In this document: one piece after another, positions 16,548 through 53,940 of the stretch
How the letters are laid out: the number at the start of each line of letters is the position of its first letter
Position numbering within the stretch: position 1 is the stretch's first letter
Assembly (NCBI RefSeq): GCF_000027125.1
Contig: NC_017626.1
Direction: 5' to 3' (one strand)
Length of the DNA: 64,000 nt
DNA from: Escherichia coli 042
GTDB lineage: Bacteria; Pseudomonadota; Gammaproteobacteria; Enterobacterales; Enterobacteriaceae
Made by a program: the position numbers and the translations under genes
The notes under the pieces: generated by a model
What the model was told of the DNA's origin: nothing
Databases searched by the model: none
What the model saw: the letters and a program-made list of their open reading frames with translations, nothing else

Positions 16548-17965
16548 TGAGCCAGTCACTGTTTAGCCAACCGTTGAACGTTATTAACGTCGGCATCGCC
16601 ATGTTTAGCGATGATCTGAAAAAGCAGCATGTAGAAGTGACCCAACTCGACTGGACGCCGCCGGGGCAGGGCAATATGCAGGTGGTGCAGGCGCTGGACA
16701 ACATTGCCGATTCCCCGCTGGCGGACAAAATCGCCTCCGCGAATCAGCAGGCGCTGGAGCGCATTATTCAGTCACATCCGGTGCTGATTGGTTTTGATCA
16801 GGCGATTAACGTGGTGCCGGGCATGACGCCGAAAACCATTCTTCACGCCGGGCCGCCGATCACCTGGGAAAAAATGTGCGGTGCGATGAAAGGCGCGGTC
16901 ACCGGGGCGCTGGTGTTCGAAGGGCTGGCGAAAGATCTCGACGAGGCGGCTGAACTGGCGGCCTCCGGGGAGATCTCCTTCTCGCCGTGCCACGAACATG
17001 ACTGCGTGGGATCGATGGCTGGTGTTACCTCGGCCTCGATGTTTATGCACATCGTAAAAAACAAAACCTACGGCAACATCGCTTACACCAATATGAGCGA
17101 GCAGATGGCGAAGATTTTGCGTATGGGCGCTAACGACCAGAGCGTGATTGACCGCCTCAACTGGATGCGCGATGTGCAGGGGCCCATGCTGCGCGACGCG
17201 ATGAAAATTATCGGCGAGATCGATCTGCGCTTGATGCTGGCGCAGGCGCTGCATATGGGCGATGAATGCCATAACCGCAATAACGCCGGGACTACGCTGC
17301 TGATTCAGGCGCTGACGCCGGGGATTATTCAGGCGGGCTATTCCGTCGAGCAACAGCGCGAAGTGTTTGAGTTTGTCGCCAGCAGCGACTACTTCTCCGG
17401 CCCGACGTGGATGGCGATGTGTAAAGCGGCGATGGATGCGGCGCACGGCATCGAATACAGCACCGTGGTGACCACGATGGCGCGTAACGGCGTCGAGTTC
17501 GGCCTGCGGGTCAGCGGATTACCGGGGCAGTGGTTTACCGGTCCGGCGCAGCAGGTGATCGGCCCGATGTTTGCCGGTTATAAGCCGGAAGATTCTGGAT
17601 TGGATATTGGCGACAGTGCCATCACCGAAACCTACGGTATTGGCGGATTTGCTATGGCGACCGCGCCTGCAATCGTCGCGCTGGTGGGCGGTACGGTGGA
17701 AGAGGCTATCGATTTCTCCCGTCAGATGCGCGAAATCACTCTCGGCGAAAACCCCAACGTCACCATTCCGCTGCTCGGTTTTATGGGCGTGCCGTCGGCA
17801 ATCGACATCACCCGCGTGGGCAGTAGCGGCATTCTGCCAGTGATCAACACCGCCATCGCTCATAAAGATGCGGGCATCGGCATGATTGGCGCGGGCATTG
17901 TGCATCCACCATTCGCCTGCTTCGAAAAAGCCATTCTTGGCTGGTGCGAACGTTACGGCGTCTGA
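16547..17965 (+). CDS. yahG: DUF1116-family protein (YlbE-like)
   Basis: 472-aa ORF; start overlaps yahF stop (TGATGA). Confidence 0.82.
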   Translation: MSQSLFSQPLNVINVGIAMFSDDLKKQHVEVTQLDWTPPGQGNMQVVQALDNIADSPLADKIASANQQALERIIQSHPVLIGFDQAINVVPGMTPKTILHAGPPITWEKMCGAMKGAVTGALVFEGLAKDLDEAAELAASGEISFSPCHEHDCVGSMAGVTSASMFMHIVKNKTYGNIAYTNMSEQMAKILRMGANDQSVIDRLNWMRDVQGPMLRDAMKIIGEIDLRLMLAQALHMGDECHNRNNAGTTLLIQALTPGIIQAGYSVEQQREVFEFVASSDYFSGPTWMAMCKAAMDAAHGIEYSTVVTTMARNGVEFGLRVSGLPGQWFTGPAQQVIGPMFAGYKPEDSGLDIGDSAITETYGIGGFAMATAPAIVALVGGTVEEAIDFSRQMREITLGENPNVTIPLLGFMGVPSAIDITRVGSSGILPVINTAIAHKDAGIGMIGAGIVHPPFACFEKAILGWCERYGV

Positions 17966-17988
17966 CCTGCAAAGTGCGCGTTGTCTCT

Positions 17989-18161
17989 GCCGGATGCGGC
18001 GTGAACGCCTTATCCGGCCTACGAGTGGCGCGAGAATCTGTAGGCCTGATAAGCGTAGCGCATCAGGCATTTGTCACCATTGCCGGATGCGGCGTGAACG
18101 CCTTATCCGGCCTACGAATGGCACGAGAATTCTAGGCCTGATAAGCGTAGCGCATCAGGCA
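17989..18161. repeat. BIME: four alternating REP palindromes
   Basis: gccggatgcggcgtgaacgccttatccggcctacg and gtaggcctgataagcgtagcgcatcaggca units, each present twice. Confidence 0.9.
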
Positions 18162-25561: not shown

Positions 25562-27148
25562 TCAGCTTTTCAGCCGCCGCCAGAACGTCGTCCGGCTGAT
25601 GCCTAAATAATTCGCCGCTGCTGTTTTATCGCCATTAAATTTCTCCAGTGCCTGTAGTGGTGTCAGCAAGGATGGGGCGGGAATTTTCGCCGACTCGCGC
25701 GCCAGTTCCGGCAGTAGCAGCTGCAAAAATTGCGGCGTTAAATCCGGCGTCGGTTCCACACTTAAAAACAGCGCCAGTCGCTCCATCATATTGCGCAGTT
25801 CACGAATATTGCCCGGCCAGTCGTAGTGCACCAGCACGGTTTCGCTTGCCTGTAATCCCTGGCGTAATGCGGCAGAAAACGGGGCGGAGAGCGCCGCCAG
25901 AGACACTTTCAAAAAGCTTTCCGCCAGCGGCAGAATATCCGTCACCCGCTCGCGCAGTGGTGGCAATTGCAGACGCAAAATACTCAGCCGATAAAACAGA
26001 TCACGGCGAAACTGCCCTTGCCGCATATCTTCTTCCAGATTGCAGTGAGTGGCGCTAATGACTCGCACATCCACCGGAACAGGCTGATGCCCGCCGACGC
26101 GGGTGACCTCTTTTTCTTCCAGCACCCGTAACAGGCGAGTCTGCAAAGGTAGCGGCATTTCGCCAATCTCATCCAGAAACAGCGTACCACCGTGGGCGAT
26201 TTCGAACAGCCCGGCGCGACCTCCGCGTCGCGAGCCGGTAAACGCCCCTTCCTCATAGCCAAACAGCTCTGCCTCCAGCAGCGATTCGGCAATCGCCCCG
26301 CAGTTGACGGCAACAAACGGATGTGACTTTTTGCCCTGTCGCGCATCGTGGCGGGCAAAATATTCCCGATGAATCGCCTGGGCCGCCAGCTCTTTGCCCG
26401 TCCCCGTTTCCCCTTCAATCAACACCGCTGCACTGGAGCGGGCATACAGCAAAATAGTCTGCCGTACCTGTTCCATCTGTGGTGATTGACCGAGCATATC
26501 GCCCAGCACGTAACGAGTACGCTGGGCGTTACGGGTGGCATCGTGAGTGTTATGGCGTAACGACATGCGCGTCATATCCAGCGCATCGCTGAATGCCTGG
26601 CGCACGGTGGCGGCGGAATAGATAAAAATTCCGGTCATTCCGGCTTCTTCTGCCAAATCGGTAATCAGCCCTGCGCCGACCACCGCTTCGGTGCCGTTAG
26701 CTTTCAGCTCGTTAATCTGCCCGCGTGCGTCTTCCTCTGTAATGTAGCTACGTTGGTCGAGGCGCAAATTAAAGGTTTTTTGAAACGCCACCAGCGCTGG
26801 AATGGTTTCCTGATAAGTGACAACGCCGATAGAAGAGGTGAGTTTTCCGGCTTTTGCCAGTGCCTGCAACACATCGTAGCCGCTCGGTTTAATCAAAATA
26901 ACTGGCACTGACAGGCGGCTTTTAAGATATGCGCCGTTAGAGCCAGCAGCGATGATGGCGTCACAGCGTTCGCTTGCCAGTTTCTTGCGGATGTAGGTCA
27001 CCGCTTTTTCAAAGCCAAGCTGGATAGGGGTAATGTTCGCCAGATGATCAAACTCGAGGCTGATATCGCGAAACAGCTCGAACAGGCGCGTCACCGATAC
27101 CGTCCAGATAACCGGTTTGTCGTCATTCAGCCGTGGTGGATGTGCCAT
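25562..27148 (-). CDS. prpR: sigma-54-dependent transcriptional activator of the prp operon
   Basis: ORF 25562..27160 begins at TTG; start set at ATG 27148 ([11 protein letters not shown]); AAA+ sigma-54 interaction domain ([13 protein letters not shown]) and C-terminal HTH. Confidence 0.9.
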
Positions 27149-27324
27149 AGCGCACCGCAAAGTTAAGAAACTGAATATTGGGTTTAGTCTTGTTTCATAA
27201 TTGTTGCAATGAAACGCGGTGAAACATTGCCTGAAACGTTAACTGAAACGCATATTTGCGGATTACTTCATGACTTTATCTCTAACAAATTGAAATAAAA
27301 CATTTAATTTTATTCAGGCAATTG

Positions 27325-27339
27325 TGGCACACCCCTTGC
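27325..27339 (+). promoter_or_regulatory. sigma-54 promoter (-24/-12) of prpBCDE
   Basis: TGGCAC-acccc-TTGC (GG-N10-GC) 48 bp upstream of the prpB ATG, downstream of the divergent prpR. Confidence 0.8.
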
Positions 27340-27386
27340 TTTGTCTTTATTAACGCAAATAACAAGTTGATAACAAAGGATGGGCT

Positions 27387-28277
27387 ATGTCTCTACACTC
27401 TCCAGGTAAAGCGTTTCGCGCTGCACTGACTAAAGAAAATCCATTGCAGATTGTTGGCACCATCAACGCTAACCATGCGCTGTTGGCGCAGCGTGCCGGA
27501 TATCAGGCGATTTATCTTTCCGGCGGTGGCGTGGCGGCAGGTTCGCTGGGGCTGCCCGATCTCGGTATTTCTACCCTTGATGACGTGCTGACCGACATTC
27601 GCCGTATCACCGACGTCTGCTCGCTGCCGCTGCTGGTAGATGCGGATATCGGTTTTGGTTCTTCTGCTTTTAACGTTGCGCGCACCGTGAAATCGATGAT
27701 TAAAGCCGGTGCGGCGGGATTGCATATTGAAGATCAGGTTGGTGCGAAACGCTGCGGCCATCGCCCGAATAAAGCGATCGTCTCGAAAGAGGAGATGGTG
27801 GATCGGATCCGCGCGGCGGTGGATGCGAAAACCGATCCTGATTTTGTGATCATGGCGCGCACCGATGCGCTGGCGGTTGAAGGGCTGGATGCGGCGATCG
27901 AGCGTGCGCGGGCCTATGTTGAAGCGGGTGCCGAGATGTTGTTCCCGGAGGCGATTACCGAACTCGCTATGTACCGCCAGTTTGCCGATGCGGTGCAGGT
28001 GCCAATCCTCGCCAACATTACCGAATTTGGCGCAACACCGCTGTTTACTACCGATGAATTACGCAGTGCCCATGTTGCAATGGCGCTGTACCCGCTTTCA
28101 GCGTTTCGCGCCATGAACCGCGCCGCCGAACATGTCTACAACGTCCTGCGTCAGGAAGGCACGCAGAAAAGCGTCATCGACACCATGCAGACCCGCAACG
28201 AACTGTACGAAAGCATCAACTATTACCAGTACGAAGAGAAGCTCGACGACCTGTTTGCCCGTAGCCAGGCGAAATAA
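27387..28277 (+). CDS. prpB: 2-methylisocitrate lyase
   Basis: 296-aa ORF, isocitrate-lyase/PEP-mutase superfamily. Confidence 0.92.
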
Positions 28278-28298
28278 AAAACGCCCGTTGGTTGTATT

Positions 28299-28770
28299 CG
28301 ACAACCGATGCCTGATGCGCCGCTGACGCGGCTTATCAGGCCTACGGGATGAACTGAACTGTAGGTCGGATAAGACGCATAGCGTCGCATCCGACAACCG
28401 ATGCCTGATGCGCCGCTGACGCGGCTTATCAGGCCTACGGGGTGAACTGAACTGTAGGTCGGATAAGACGCATAGCGTCGCATCCGACAACCGATGCCTG
28501 ATGCGCCGCTGACGCGGCTTATCAGGCCTACGGGGCGTGCTGAACTGTAGGTCGGATAAGACGTATGGCGTCGCATCCGACAACCGATGCCTGATGCGCC
28601 GCTGACGCGACTTATCAGGCCTACGGGGTGAACTGAACTGTAGGTCGGATAAGACGCATGGCGTCGCATCCGACAACCGATGCCTGATGCGACGCTGACG
28701 CGGCTTATCAGGCCTGCGGGGTGAACTGAACTGTAGGTCGGATAAGACGCATAGCGTCGCATCCGACAAC
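28299..28770. repeat. tandem REP/BIME array, about five copies of a 93-bp unit
   Basis: cgacaaccgatgcctgatgcgccgctgacgcggcttatcaggcctacgg...gtaggtcggataagacgcatagcgtcgcatc recurs at 28299, 28392, 28485, 28578 and 28671. Confidence 0.9.
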
Positions 28771-28809
28771 AATCTCGACCCTACAAATGATAACAATGAC
28801 GAGGACAAT

Positions 28810-29979
28810 ATGAGCGACACAACGATCCTGCAAAACAGTACCCATGTCATTAAACCGAAAAAATCTGTGGCACTTTCTGGCGTTCCGGCGGGCAATACGG
28901 CGCTCTGCACCGTGGGTAAAAGTGGCAATGACTTGCATTACCGTGGTTACGATATTATTGATCTGGCGGAACATTGCGAATTTGAAGAAGTGGCGCATCT
29001 GCTGATCCACGGCAAACTGCCGACCCGTGACGAACTCGCCGCTTACAAAACAAAACTGAAAGCCCTGCGCGGTTTACCGGCTAACGTGCGTACCGTGCTG
29101 GAAGCCTTACCGGCGGCGTCGCACCCGATGGATGTCATGCGCACAGGCGTTTCCGCACTCGGTTGCACGCTGCCAGAAAAAGAAGGGCACACTGTCTCTG
29201 GCGCGCGGGATATTGCCGACAAACTGTTGGCGTCGCTTAGCTCGATTCTTCTCTACTGGTATCACTACAGCCACAACGGCGAACGCATCCAGCCAGAAAC
29301 CGATGACGACTCCATCGGCGGTCACTTCCTGCATCTGCTGCATGGCGAAAAGCCGTCGCAAAGCTGGGAAAAGGCGATGCATATTTCGCTGGTGCTGTAC
29401 GCCGAACACGAGTTTAACGCCTCCACCTTTACCAGCCGGGTGATTGCGGGCACCGGCTCTGATATGTATTCCGCGATTATTGGCGCGATTGGCGCACTGC
29501 GCGGGCCGAAACACGGCGGGGCGAATGAAGTGTCGCTGGAGATCCAACAACGCTACGAAACGCCGGACGAAGCCGAAGCCGATATCCGCAAGCGCGTGGA
29601 AAACAGAGAAGTGGTCATTGGTTTTGGTCATCCGGTTTACACCATCGCCGACCCGCGTCATCAGGTGATCAAACGCGTGGCGAAGCAGCTCTCGCAGGAA
29701 GGCGGTTCGCTGAAGATGTACAACATCGCCGATCGCCTGGAAACGGTGATGTGGGAGAGCAAAAAGATGTTCCCCAATCTCGACTGGTTCTCCGCTGTTT
29801 CCTACAACATGATGGGCGTTCCCACCGAGATGTTCACCCCACTGTTTGTTATCGCCCGCGTCACCGGCTGGGCGGCGCACATTATCGAACAACGTCAGGA
29901 CAACAAAATTATCCGTCCTTCCGCCAATTATGTTGGACCGGAAGACCGCCAGTTTGTCGCGCTGGATAAGCGCCAGTAA
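28810..29979 (+). CDS. prpC: 2-methylcitrate synthase
   Basis: 389-aa ORF of the citrate synthase family. Confidence 0.92.
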
Positions 29980-30012: not shown

Positions 30013-31464
30013 ATGTCAGCTCAAATCAACAACATCCGCCCGGAATTTGATCGTGAAATCGTTGATATCGTCGATTACGTCATGAACTACGAAATTAGCT
30101 CTAAAGTGGCCTACGACACCGCACATTACTGCCTGCTCGACACTCTCGGCTGCGGTCTTGAAGCTCTCGAATACCCGGCCTGTAAAAAACTGCTGGGGCC
30201 AATTGTCCCCGGCACTGTCGTACCTAACGGCGTGCGCGTCCCCGGAACTCAGTTCCAGCTCGACCCCGTCCAGGCGGCATTTAACATTGGCGCGATGATC
30301 CGCTGGCTTGATTTCAACGATACCTGGCTGGCGGCGGAGTGGGGCCATCCTTCCGACAACCTCGGCGGCATTCTGGCAACGGCGGACTGGCTTTCGCGCA
30401 ACGCGGTCGCCAGCGGCAAAGCGCCGTTGACCATGAAACAGGTGCTGACCGCAATGATCAAAGCCCATGAAATTCAGGGCTGCATCGCGCTGGAAAACTC
30501 CTTTAACCGCGTCGGCCTCGACCACGTTCTGTTAGTGAAAGTGGCTTCCACCGCCGTGGTCGCCGAAATGCTCGGCCTGACCCGCGAGGAAATTCTCAAC
30601 GCCGTTTCGCTGGCGTGGGTGGACGGTCAGTCGCTGCGCACCTATCGCCATGCGCCGAACACCGGCACGCGTAAATCCTGGGCGGCGGGCGATGCCACTT
30701 CCCGCGCGGTACGTCTGGCACTGATGGCGAAAACGGGCGAAATGGGTTACCCGTCAGCCCTGACTGCGCCTGTGTGGGGCTTCTACGACGTCTCCTTCAA
30801 AGGTGAGTCGTTCCGCTTCCAGCGCCCGTACGGTTCTTACGTGATGGAAAATGTGCTGTTCAAAATCTCCTTCCCGGCGGAGTTCCACTCCCAGACGGCA
30901 GTTGAAGCAGCGATGACGCTCTATGAACAGATGCAGGCAGCAGGCAAAACGGCGGCAGATATCGAAAAAGTGACCATTCGCACCCACGAAGCCTGTATTC
31001 GCATCATCGACAAAAAAGGACCGCTCAATAACCCGGCAGACCGCGATCACTGCATTCAGTACATGGTGGCGATCCCGCTGCTGTTCGGACGCTTAACGGC
31101 GGCAGATTACGAGGACAACGTTGCGCAAGATAAACGCATCGACGCCCTGCGCGAGAAGATCAATTGCTTTGAAGATCCGGCATTTACCGCTGACTACCAC
31201 GACCCGGAAAAACGTGCCATCGCCAATGCCATAACCCTTGAGTTCACCGACGGTACGCGATTTGAAGAAGTGGTGGTGGAGTACCCAATTGGTCATGCTC
31301 GCCGCCGTCAGGATGGCATTCCGAAACTGGTCGATAAATTCAAAATCAATCTCGCGCGCCAGTTCCCGACTCGCCAACAGCAGCGCATTCTGGAGGTTTC
31401 TCTCGACAGAGCTCGCCTGGAACAGATGCCGGTCAATGAGTATCTCGACCTGTACGTCATTTAA
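30013..31464 (+). CDS. prpD: 2-methylcitrate dehydratase
   Basis: 483-aa ORF of the MmgE/PrpD family. Confidence 0.92.
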
Positions 31465-31503: not shown

Positions 31504-33390
31504 ATGTCTTTTAGCGAATTTTATCAGCGTTCGATTAACGAACCGGAGAAGTTCTGGGCCGAGCAGGCCCGGCGTATTGACTGGCAGACGCCCTTTACGC
31601 AAACGCTCGATCACAGCAATCCGCCGTTTGCCCGTTGGTTTTGTGAAGGCCGAACCAACTTGTGTCACAACGCTATCGACCGCTGGCTGGAGAAACAGCC
31701 AGAGGCGCTGGCGCTGATTGCCGTCTCTTCGGAAACAGAAGAAGAGCGCACCTTTACCTTCCGCCAGTTACATGACGAAGTGAATGCGGTGGCCTCAATG
31801 CTGCGCTCGCTGGGTGTGCAGCGCGGCGATCGGGTGCTGGTGTATATGCCGATGATTGCCGAAGCACATATTACTCTGCTGGCTTGCGCGCGCATTGGCG
31901 CTATTCACTCGGTGGTGTTTGGGGGATTTGCCTCGCACAGCGTGGCGGCGCGAATTGATGATGCTAAACCGGTGCTGATTGTCTCGGCTGATGCCGGAGC
32001 GCGCGGTGGCAAAATCATTCCCTATAAAAAATTGCTCGACGATGCGATAAGTCAGGCGCAGCACCAGCCACGCCATGTTTTGCTGGTGGATCGCGGGCTG
32101 GCGAAAATGGCACGCGTCAGCGGGCGGGATGTCGATTTCGCGTCGTTGCGCCATCAACACATCGGCGCGCGGGTACCGGTGGCGTGGCTGGAATCCAACG
32201 AAACCTCCTGCATTCTCTACACCTCCGGCACGACCGGCAAACCTAAAGGCGTGCAGCGTGACGTTGGCGGATATGCGGTGGCGCTGGCGACCTCGATGGA
32301 CACCATTTTTGGCGGCAAAGCGGGCGGTGTGTTCTTTTGTGCTTCGGATATCGGCTGGGTGGTGGGGCATTCGTATATCGTCTACGCGCCGCTGCTGGCG
32401 GGGATGGCGACTATCGTTTACGAAGGATTACCGACCTGGCCGGACTGCGGCGTGTGGTGGAAAATCGTCGAGAAATATCAGGTTAGCCGGATGTTCTCAG
32501 CGCCGACCGCCATTCGCGTGCTGAAAAAATTCCCTACCGCTGAAATTCGCAAACACGATCTCTCGTCGCTGGAAGTGCTCTATCTGGCTGGAGAACCGCT
32601 GGACGAGCCGACCGCCAGTTGGGTGAGCAATACGCTGGATGTGCCAGTGATCGACAATTACTGGCAGACCGAATCCGGCTGGCCGATTATGGCGATTGCT
32701 CGCGGTCTGGACGACAGGCCGACGCGTCTGGGTAGCCCCGGCGTGCCGATGTATGGCTATAACGTGCAGTTGCTTAATGAAGTCACCGGCGAACCGTGTG
32801 GCGTCAACGAGAAAGGGATGCTGGTGGTGGAAGGGCCATTGCCGCCGGGGTGTATTCAGACCATTTGGGGCGACGACGACCGCTTTGTGAAGACGTACTG
32901 GTCGCTGTTTTCCCGTCCGGTGTACGCCACTTTTGACTGGGGTATCCGCGATGCTGACGGTTATCACTTTATTCTCGGGCGCACTGACGATGTGATTAAC
33001 GTTGCCGGGCATCGGCTGGGGACGCGCGAGATTGAAGAGAGTATCTCCAGTCATCCGGGCGTTGCCGAAGTGGCGGTGGTTGGGGTGAAAGATGCGCTGA
33101 AAGGGCAGGTGGCGGTGGCGTTTGTCATTCCGAAAGAGAGCGACAGTCTGGAAGACCGTGAGGTGGCGCACTCGCAAGAGAAGGCGATTATGGCGCTGGT
33201 GGACAGCCAGATTGGCAACTTTGGCCGCCCGGCGCACGTCTGGTTTGTCTCGCAATTGCCGAAAACGCGATCCGGAAAAATGCTGCGCCGCACGATCCAG
33301 GCGATTTGCGAAGGACGCGATCCTGGGGATCTGACGACCATTGATGATCCTGCGTCGTTGGATCAGATCCGCCAGGCGATGGAAGAGTAA
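31504..33390 (+). CDS. prpE: propionyl-CoA synthetase
   Basis: 628-aa ORF with AMP-binding motif YTSGTTGKPKG. Confidence 0.92.
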   Translation: MSFSEFYQRSINEPEKFWAEQARRIDWQTPFTQTLDHSNPPFARWFCEGRTNLCHNAIDRWLEKQPEALALIAVSSETEEERTFTFRQLHDEVNAVASMLRSLGVQRGDRVLVYMPMIAEAHITLLACARIGAIHSVVFGGFASHSVAARIDDAKPVLIVSADAGARGGKIIPYKKLLDDAISQAQHQPRHVLLVDRGLAKMARVSGRDVDFASLRHQHIGARVPVAWLESNETSCILYTSGTTGKPKGVQRDVGGYAVALATSMDTIFGGKAGGVFFCASDIGWVVGHSYIVYAPLLAGMATIVYEGLPTWPDCGVWWKIVEKYQVSRMFSAPTAIRVLKKFPTAEIRKHDLSSLEVLYLAGEPLDEPTASWVSNTLDVPVIDNYWQTESGWPIMAIARGLDDRPTRLGSPGVPMYGYNVQLLNEVTGEPCGVNEKGMLVVEGPLPPGCIQTIWGDDDRFVKTYWSLFSRPVYATFDWGIRDADGYHFILGRTDDVINVAGHRLGTREIEESISSHPGVAEVAVVGVKDALKGQVAVAFVIPKESDSLEDREVAHSQEKAIMALVDSQIGNFGRPAHVWFVSQLPKTRSGKMLRRTIQAICEGRDPGDLTTIDDPASLDQIRQAMEE

Positions 33391-33396
33391 GGTATT

Positions 33397-33863
33397 GTCG
33401 GATGCGTCGTGTGGCGCATCCGACACCGTGCGCCGATGCCTGATGCGACGCTGACGCGTCTTATCATGCCTACAGGCCTGAACCGTAGGTCGGATAAGGC
33501 GCTCGCGCCGCATCCGACACCGTGCGCCGATGCCTGATGCGACGCTGACGCGTCTTATCATGCCTACAGGCCTGAACCGTAGGTCGGATAAGGCGCTCGC
33601 GCCGCATCCGACACCGTGCGCCGATGCCTGATGCGACGCTGGCGCGTCTTATCATGCCTACAGGTCTGAACCGTAGGTCGGATAAGGCGCTCGCGCCGCA
33701 TCCGACACCGTGCGCAGATGCCTGATACGACGCTGGCGCGTCTTATCATGCCTACAGGCCTGAACCGTAGGTCGGATAAGGCGCTCGCGCCGCATCCGAC
33801 ACCGTGCGCAGATGCCTGATGCGACGCTGACGCGTCTTATCATGCCCACAGGCCTGAACCGTG
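33397..33863. repeat. tandem REP/BIME array, about five copies of a 94-bp unit
   Basis: unit cgacaccgtgcgccgatgcctgatgcgacgctgacgcgtcttatcatgcctacaggcctgaaccgtaggtcggataaggcgctcgcgccgcatc recurs at 33421, 33515, 33609, 33703 and 33797. Confidence 0.9.
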
Positions 33864-53788: not shown

Positions 53789-53940
53789 TGCCGGATGCGG
53801 CGTGAACGCCTTATCCGGCCTACGGATGGCGCGAGAATTTGTAGGCCAGATAAGACGCGTTAGCGTCGCATCAGGCATCTGAGCACGACTGCCGGATGCG
53901 GCGTAAACGTCTTGTTCGGCCTACATTTCGCCTGTAGGCA
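53789..53940. repeat. BIME: three to four REP palindromes
   Basis: tgccggatgcggcgtgaacgccttatccggcctacg, gtaggccagataagacgcgttagcgtcgcatcaggca and a degenerate third copy. Confidence 0.88.

Follow-up and report, generated by a model that had tools for sequence, protein, structure and literature searches.

A five-unit BIME-2 tandem array between prpB and prpC of Escherichia coli 042 and its possible part in raising prpB over prpCDE

What is the repeated DNA that separates prpB from prpC in Escherichia coli 042, and does it do anything for the operon in which it lies? The question arises from a 64,000-nucleotide stretch of the E. coli chromosome (NC_017626.1), with ykgE at one end and tauB at the other, which we refer to as the window. 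A sequence-only reading of this stretch had proposed that about five head-to-tail copies of a 93-bp unit, each holding two inverted REP palindromes, fill the prpB-prpC spacer of a sigma-54-driven operon, and it had suggested a tandem-repeat search and a comparison of copy number across strains as checks. REP and BIME-2 arrays have been known since the 1980s-1990s. This particular array is itself already known, being annotated in K-12 as REP25, with a difference in repeat number between strains on record (PMC7360682). The best explanation, and one that we consider reasonably probable, is that the array is a BIME-2 element that acts through its RNA to raise prpB over prpCDE.

The repeat itself is not in doubt. 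Tandem Repeats Finder (TRF) returned the same coordinates as the original reading, with a period of 93, 5.1 copies, 96% matches and no indels, and an independent seed-and-extend repeat search placed the copies in register at steps of 93, 93, 93 and 93; the periodicity is real and far above chance. The only comparable array in the 64-kb window lies at 33415-33862. The prpB-prpC array is richer in G and C than the window as a whole (59.3% vs 52.5%), and pairwise identity among whole units is 92-99%. Over window positions 27900-29200, strain Ecol_316 and some 30 further records match the sequence at 100% identity; across the full 64 kb, the window and Ecol_316 are not base-identical (there is, for example, a 3-bp offset by yahN).

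The setting is also as proposed. NCBIfam equivalog models identify the flanking products as PrpB and PrpC; prpB stops at 28277 and prpC starts at 28810, and the array falls wholly between them. Placed in the spacer of a sigma-54/PrpR operon, it therefore occupies most of the untranslated 532 bp between the two genes. The exact consensus TGGCACN5TTGC has a single match in the window, 48 nt 5′ of prpB, and prpR is divergently oriented, which bears out the assignment to sigma-54. To the right of the array, a Shine-Dalgarno sequence lies 4 nt before the prpC ATG, and the motif ..CCCTACA..ATGACGAGGACAA is kept in Escherichia, Citrobacter, Salmonella and Kluyvera. Within 27100-29100 we found neither a sigma-70-like promoter nor an intrinsic (Rho-independent) terminator, that is, a GC-rich hairpin with a U tract, and a reading of the array as such a terminator was rejected on that scan. 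Because there is no such internal promoter or terminator, and because prpC has a Shine-Dalgarno sequence of its own, the array should be cotranscribed with the rest of the prp operon. The positions of these and other features are collected in Table 1.

Table 1. Features at and around the prpB-prpC array, in window coordinates
Feature	Position	Strand	Basis or remark
prpR	25562-27160	-	PrpR by NCBIfam equivalog model; divergent from prpBCDE
Sigma-54 (-24/-12) promoter consensus TGGCACACCCCTTGC of prpBCDE	27325-27339	+	Exact TGGCACN5TTGC
prpB, methylisocitrate lyase, upstream of array	27387-28277	+	NCBIfam NF008455, 560 bits
179-aa ORF, almost certainly spurious, "hypothetical protein" WP_001526095.1	28223-28762	-	RefSeq/PGAP; 31-residue period
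Left-flank hairpin, 10 bp	28286-28310	+	RNAfold -11.7 kcal/mol; starts 8 nt after prpB stop
Tandem array, 5.1 x 93-bp BIME-2 unit (z2 iREP, 15-nt linker, y REP, 5-nt linker)	28299-28770	.	TRF 874
z2 REP no. 1, TGCCTGATGCG..CTTATCAGGCCTAC, iREP orientation, 3′ CTAC	28309-28345	+	Regex; 34/37 vs z2 reference
z2 REP copies 2-5	28402-28438, 28495-28531, 28588-28624, 28681-28717	+	Copy 5 ends CTGC
IS621 natural target ATCAGGCCTAC, exact	28335-28345; also from 28428, 28521, 28614	+	Target sequence from PMC11208160
y REP no. 1, GTAGGTCGGATAAG..CATCCGACA, variant GTCGGAT foot, 5′ GTAG	28361-28396	+	Regex; 29/35 vs y
y REP copies 2-5	28454-28489, 28547-28582, 28640-28675, 28733-28768	+	Pattern coordinates
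y+z2 hairpin pairs matching Rfam RF02564 (naRNA4)	28364-28435, 28457-28528, 28550-28621, 28643-28714	+	Covariance model
Right flank, unique, with prpC Shine-Dalgarno GAGGA (28801-28805)	28771-28809	+	Sequence reading
prpC, 2-methylcitrate synthase, downstream of array	28810-29979	+	NCBIfam NF009006, 720 bits
PrpD	30013-31464		NCBIfam equivalog model
PrpE	31504-33390		NCBIfam equivalog model

On the sense strand, each unit consists of a 37-nt palindrome that ends in CTAC, a 15-nt linker, a 36-nt palindrome that starts with GTAG, and a 5-nt linker. Five z2 and five y palindromes recur at 93-bp steps, in keeping with the two inverted REPs per unit of the original proposal; of these ten, nine have the exact GTAG/CTAC foot and one has CTGC. 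Types were assigned by comparison with the published E. coli y, z1 and z2 sequences quoted in PMC11208160. The y-type REPs agree with the y reference at 28-29 of 35 positions and have the diagnostic CGGATG/TTATCCG in place of CTGATG/TTATCAG. In their foot, both sides of a C-G pair have been replaced to give U-A (GTCGGAT..ATCCGAC). The y assignment is weaker than that of z2 (28-29/35 vs 34/37).

Folded singly with RNAfold, the z2 and y hairpins have predicted energies of -23.5 and -19.2 kcal/mol, and each contains an internal bulge (C10/U25 in z2, AA/GC in y). The RNA of the entire spacer folds at -266 kcal/mol, compared with -186 +/- 7 for shuffled sequences (z = -11.6). The structure can also be read from an alignment of 20 distinct units drawn from the window, K-12, O157, strain 2A, another E. 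coli, E. albertii, a cryptic Escherichia and two paralogous arrays: the two-hairpin model is paired in 97.4% of 500 cells, with four pairs altered on both sides, whereas controls in which the partners were slid by 1-3 columns gave 23-42% pairing. The conserved internal mismatch and the compensatory changes that characterize REPs are thus both present in the array hairpins. One pair in the z2 stem, 28320/28331 and its equivalents in each unit, is unpaired in eight of the 20 distinct units. Most window units have C-G at this place, most K-12 units have a C.A mismatch, the first K-12 unit has U-A and E. albertii has U-G.

A further hairpin precedes the first REP. It arises from complementarity between the unique flank CGTTGGTTGT and the first copy of the y-to-z2 linker, ACAACCGATG, and it persists when the whole spacer is folded to its minimum free energy. 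The same hairpin occurs in the one-unit E. coli strain 2A and in E. albertii, and it is slightly altered in most other filled alleles. The effect of REPs close to stop codons, reportedly described by Liang, Rudd and Deutscher, requires that a REP lie within about 15 nt of the stop. In the window, the first REP stem begins 32 nt past the prpB stop, and what stands at 8 nt is only the non-REP hairpin of the flank.

We regard it as virtually settled that the array is a classical BIME-2 element of five tandem units and the ortholog of K-12 REP25. BIME-2 elements are defined as z2 and y REPs in inverse orientation, in many tandem copies separated by short linkers (Ton-Hoang et al., PMC3333891), and the copies at any one locus are well conserved, while their number differs from strain to strain (the Bachellier/Gilson scheme as summarised in PMC3333891). 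The array alternates inverse y and z2 REPs in five units of period 93 with linkers of 15 and 5 nt; it is extragenic over its whole length, and its number varies between strains, spacers of 44-532 bp corresponding to 0-5 units. Its palindromes are of z2 length (37 nt) and not of z1 length (30 nt), and linkers of 5 and 15 nt exclude by their length the long L linker with an IHF site that is the hallmark of BIME-1. In its z2/y composition the array resembles the rest of the family, from which it differs by the variant y foot (29/35 to the y reference). The covariance model of the Rfam family naRNA4 (RF02564), which derives from the y+z2 unit of REP325 (Rfam), agrees: four hairpin pairs score 67.4, 67.4, 63.5 and 61.8 bits, all above the gathering score of 59.5 bits, and in the alignment the array y REP falls on the y half of naRNA4 and shows compensated pairs. 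A CRISPR array can be set aside, for the sequences between the palindromes are repeated linkers and not unique spacers.

The closest relatives are instructive. In K-12, REP25 is listed as a tandem prpB-prpC element at NC_000913.3 349606-349970 (supplement of bioRxiv 10.64898/2026.03.23.713779), and it shares flanks, 93-bp unit and orientation with the window array; it has four units in a 439-bp spacer, compared with five units in 532 bp in the window. The z2 stem of most window units reads GCGGC where K-12 has GCGAC, and this restores C-G pairing at a position that is mismatched (C.A) in K-12. Apart from this lineage-specific G/A variant there is no clear signal of homogenisation, mean unit identity being 0.955 within the window array and 0.951 between the window and K-12 arrays.

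REP325, between yjdM and yjdN, is the nearest analog that has been studied. Like the prp array, it places alternating tandem y/z2 hairpins between cotranscribed genes, with y before z2 in the sense of the mRNA; its period is 100, with 5.8 copies and 12 hairpins (BW25113), compared with a period of 93 and ten hairpins in the window, and its linkers of 12 and 17 nt and canonical GCCGGAT y foot contrast with the 5 and 15 nt and variant foot found here. Experiments show that REP325 stabilises the gene upstream of it and attenuates the one downstream: in its absence yjdM expression falls and yjdN expression rises (bioRxiv 10.64898/2026.03.23.713779). The same preprint describes a ladder of RNAs ending at the hairpins, and an increase in read-through with bicyclomycin that indicates partial Rho dependence without C>G skew; it also reports that tandem gene pairs containing REPs have, genome-wide, a higher ratio of upstream to downstream expression, and that the stabilising effects of REPs are context-dependent (10.64898/2026.03.23.713779).

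How the array varies within the species could be followed at a locus present in 5,220 of 5,426 complete E. coli genomes, and the comparison across strains that had been proposed as a check yields alleles of zero to five units. Read directly from the sequence, the spacer is 44 bp with no unit (ZH48 is an example), 159 or 155 bp with one (strain 2A and O157:H7, respectively), 253 bp with two (cS100a), 346 bp with three (ET896), 439 bp with four (K-12 and BL21) and 532 bp with five (the window, E. coli 042). A systematic sample of 60 records, obtained with a flank-only query from what is a biased collection and not a census, contained 25, 15, 1, 2, 14 and 2 alleles of zero, one, two, three, four and five units, plus one deletion of the locus (about 42, 25, 2, 3, 23 and 3% for zero to five units). 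An earlier sample of 40 agrees, with 15, 11, 0, 3, 8 and 2 in the same class order and one deletion. In roughly 18 records the two flanks came out as separate matches, which makes these records candidates for IS621, IS1397 or other insertions in the array. The five-unit allele of the window is the largest among the sampled records.

Unit number differs between lineages, from zero to five, by the gain or loss of whole units. The three-unit array of ET896 is that of K-12 minus one unit, and the first unit of the two-unit allele is a hybrid; unequal recombination between units would be expected to produce both. Across the array, about 151 records match the window at 99% identity or more. The best 60 of these, from human, poultry, wild-bird and water sources on several continents, all have the five-unit length except two with a 5-bp deletion. 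From this uniformity across hosts and countries it follows that unit number is stable within lineages and not hypervariable.

The REP-free allele deserves separate mention. In ZH48 (locus 679-722, corresponding to window 28278-28809) the spacer also lacks a 9-bp segment of ATGATAACA type located 5′ of the prpC ribosome-binding site; this segment is present in filled E. coli alleles, and a similar form occurs in Kluyvera and some Citrobacter. Its absence suggests that the empty allele is derived, and with the outgroups taken into account the allele is most simply read as a secondary loss. Alignment of the zero-unit flanks reveals no clean excision. The single locus deletion is of another kind. 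In SCU-171 (NZ_CP054363.1, ~4184792-4184934), only the first ~120-145 bases of the queries match, a stretch in the interior of prpB ~250-380 nt before its stop, and the match abuts a gene annotated as "cytosine permease." This arrangement suggests a deletion from inside prpB through prpCDE to codB, possibly one between the two BIME arrays that flank prpCDE.

A scan of other species, in which we measured the prpB-prpC spacer in one genome for each species with PrpB, places this variation in a wider frame. E. albertii has the same element, with four units in 405 bp, and a cryptic-clade Escherichia has one unit. Spacers of 80-125 bp in Citrobacter species and of 93-111 bp in Salmonella subspecies arizonae and diarizonae contain one or two REPs of their own sequence types, and Kluyvera has a REP remnant at the junction. 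REPs in E. albertii, Citrobacter and Salmonella imply that the occupation of the prpB-prpC junction by REPs is old; growth to at least three units was seen, among the species scanned, only in Escherichia. The measured spacers of Pseudocitrobacter and Shimwellia contain no REP, and those of Xenorhabdus, Photorhabdus, Providencia and genera of the Oxalobacteraceae are short, mostly <70 bp. Morganella psychrotolerans, with spacers of 187 and 136 bp, carries a long unrelated palindrome, CATTCAGGATGCAGG...CCTGCAGTTTGAATG, so that in this distant genus the junction holds a different structured element.

What might such an element do? The sequence-only reading named stabilisation or attenuation of mRNA and targeting by IS or REPtron activity, and these are roles that published work gives to elements of this class. 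Between genes of an operon, REP hairpins of the malE-malF type act as mRNA stabilisers, and the upstream gene is expressed at a higher level. That stabilisation was reportedly described by Newbury, Higgins and co-workers in 1987-88. The malE-malF cases involve 2-3 REPs, as opposed to the ten hairpins of the prp array, and for prp a connection with RNase R and oxygen has been reported in addition. Working on the prp locus, Pobeguts et al. (PMC7360682) found that K-12 and the Crohn's disease isolate ZvL2 differ in repeat number and, by RT-qPCR, that prpB is induced more strongly than the downstream genes. A passage of that paper, citing Simonte et al. 2017, states that RNase R "may target the repeats" (PMC7360682). 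As cited in PMC5371410 and PMC10240344, Simonte et al. 2017 report that RNase R hydrolyses prpBCDE mRNA and that deletion of rnr confers a gain of anaerobic propionate use.

By analogy with these systems, we propose that the array may be a dual element, one that stabilises the upstream prpB message and attenuates prpCDE or exposes it to decay, and we would call the prospects of this particular function evenly balanced. Once the operon is induced, the array would be transcribed within the prpBCDE mRNA and would fold into ten stable hairpins. These would block 3′-to-5′ exonucleases and thereby protect the upstream prpB segment. The long, untranslated and pause-prone stretch would cause part of the transcription to be lost by attenuation that is partly Rho-dependent, and RNase R, which is competent to degrade structured RNA, would start the decay of the operon mRNA at the array; the net outcome would be a level of prpB above that of prpCDE. 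The strength of this effect probably scales with the number of units. As regards Rho, the spacer has a C/G ratio of 0.91, with no C>G skew, and its RNA is strongly structured; a single Rho-binding fragment is listed near K-12 REP25, antisense and with a 4-nt overlap (10.64898/2026.03.23.713779 supplement). About 40% of the sampled E. coli have no REP in the spacer (44 bp), so any function of the array must be dispensable.

A serious alternative, which we consider possible if somewhat doubtful, is that the array is neutral or selfish: a REP doublet that settled in a tolerant spacer and was amplified and contracted by unequal recombination, slippage or a RAYT, with no role in prp expression. The coexistence of alleles of zero to five units, with roughly 40% of the sampled genomes having none, is what such a history would leave, as are the hybrid first unit of the two-unit allele and the origin of the ET896 array from that of K-12 by loss of one unit. 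Variation in number between strains is, moreover, general among BIME-2 elements, and RAYT-promoted recombination of BIMEs has been obtained in vitro (Ton-Hoang et al., PMC3333891). It is harder to reconcile with neutrality that E. albertii, Citrobacter and Salmonella have REPs of species-specific types at the same junction, that the published RT-qPCR places prpB induction above that of the downstream genes, that the analogous REP325 has measurable local effects, and that five-unit length is constant, across many hosts and countries, in all but two of the best 60 matches.

REPs serve as targets for IS elements. In its DNA form, the array would offer sites to the REP-specific elements IS621 and IS1397 and to a RAYT transposase; exact IS621 targets number four in the array and two in the rest of the 64-kb window. 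A REPtron was considered and rejected, there being no tnpA-REP (RAYT) gene among the 59 features annotated across the Ecol_316 counterpart of the window. No RAYT gene or IS element is annotated over the 64 kb in this closely related record. The array could still be the target, in trans, of a RAYT encoded elsewhere.

It seems to us highly improbable that the array functions mainly as DNA, as a site of gyrase binding and cleavage or as a topological barrier, and not through RNA. BIME-2 elements are indeed enriched for gyrase cleavage sites, preferentially in their y REPs and independently of transcription, but only a subset of them is cleaved (PMC6379681). Neither prpB nor prpC appears in the two supplementary text files of that Topo-seq study (PMC6379681), which therefore lend no support to a gyrase role at this locus; nothing in the sequence itself separates a role as DNA from a role as RNA. 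Less credible again is the suggestion that the array is a source of naRNA4-like RNAs that condense the chromosome together with HU, even with four units above the Rfam naRNA4 gathering score and with the proposal originally made for REP325 (PMC4550694) as a precedent. Deletion or overexpression of REP325 has been found to leave nucleoid volume unaffected, and no REP-REP contacts were detected (10.64898/2026.03.23.713779), in a 2026 preprint whose authors include one from the original naRNA proposal. The HU/nucleoid function is thus disputed for the founding member of the family, and the prp operon is silent unless induced.

One consequence of the repeat concerns annotation. The sequence-only reading held that the unit is open in several frames and gives rise to periodic pseudo-proteins. 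A periodic product is indeed annotated by PGAP, as WP_001526095.1, a 31-residue peptide repeated five times; the claim of several open frames has to be narrowed to two of six, both on the minus strand, which stay open because 93 nt equal 31 codons. WP_001526095.1 is annotated in most five-unit genomes and is absent from the zero- to four-unit genomes examined, and Pfam found no family at its cut-off in the minus-strand ORFs. That this open frame, annotated as it is, should be a real protein-coding gene can be virtually dismissed, since its product is periodic purely because 93 = 3 x 31 and matches no Pfam family, the frame runs antisense to the 3′ end of prpB, it shrinks or vanishes with unit number, and it cannot exist at 179 aa in alleles of zero or one unit; judged from the sequence, WP_001526095.1 is almost certainly a mis-annotation.

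REPs occur at other sites in the window as well. The second array, in the 985-bp prpE-codB spacer, is BIME-2-like, with a period of 94, 4.8 copies, 97% matches and four naRNA4 matches; REP26, which corresponds to it in K-12, has a listed length of only 171 bp, and the prpE-codB array is therefore expanded in the window strain. The best naRNA4-type REP pair of the window (78 bits; 18043-18112, minus strand) takes up exactly the final 70 nt of yahG as annotated (16694-18112), and the C-terminus of YahG as annotated would therefore be encoded by a REP. A further naRNA4-type pair, of 65 bits, lies in the mhpE-mhpT spacer on the minus strand (53844-53921) and corresponds to K-12 REP31.

The array accounts for two practical matters. 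It explains the recurrent "hypothetical protein" mis-annotation of five-unit genomes, and it explains assembly breaks at prpB-prpC, the "prpB // prpC repeat" being listed among those that break 454 assemblies (PMC3045373). Beyond these, the natural series of alleles from zero to five units, situated in a well-understood inducible operon, is in our opinion the one modestly useful result of this work, as it can be used for a quantitative test of tuning by REP hairpins and of sensitivity to RNase R and would make the idea of a REP dial directly testable. In its full form, which goes beyond the dual function proposed above and which we put forward as speculation that is probably too ambitious, that idea holds that unit number, ranging from zero to five and stable within lineages, is a heritable dial that sets the ratio of PrpB to PrpCDE and an RNase R-dependent, oxygen-conditional shut-off of propionate use. 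Were this true, lineages of E. coli would differ in their use of propionate in the gut by virtue of a noncoding array, and selection for the same uncoupling would lie behind the repeated occupation of this junction by REPs in Citrobacter and Salmonella.
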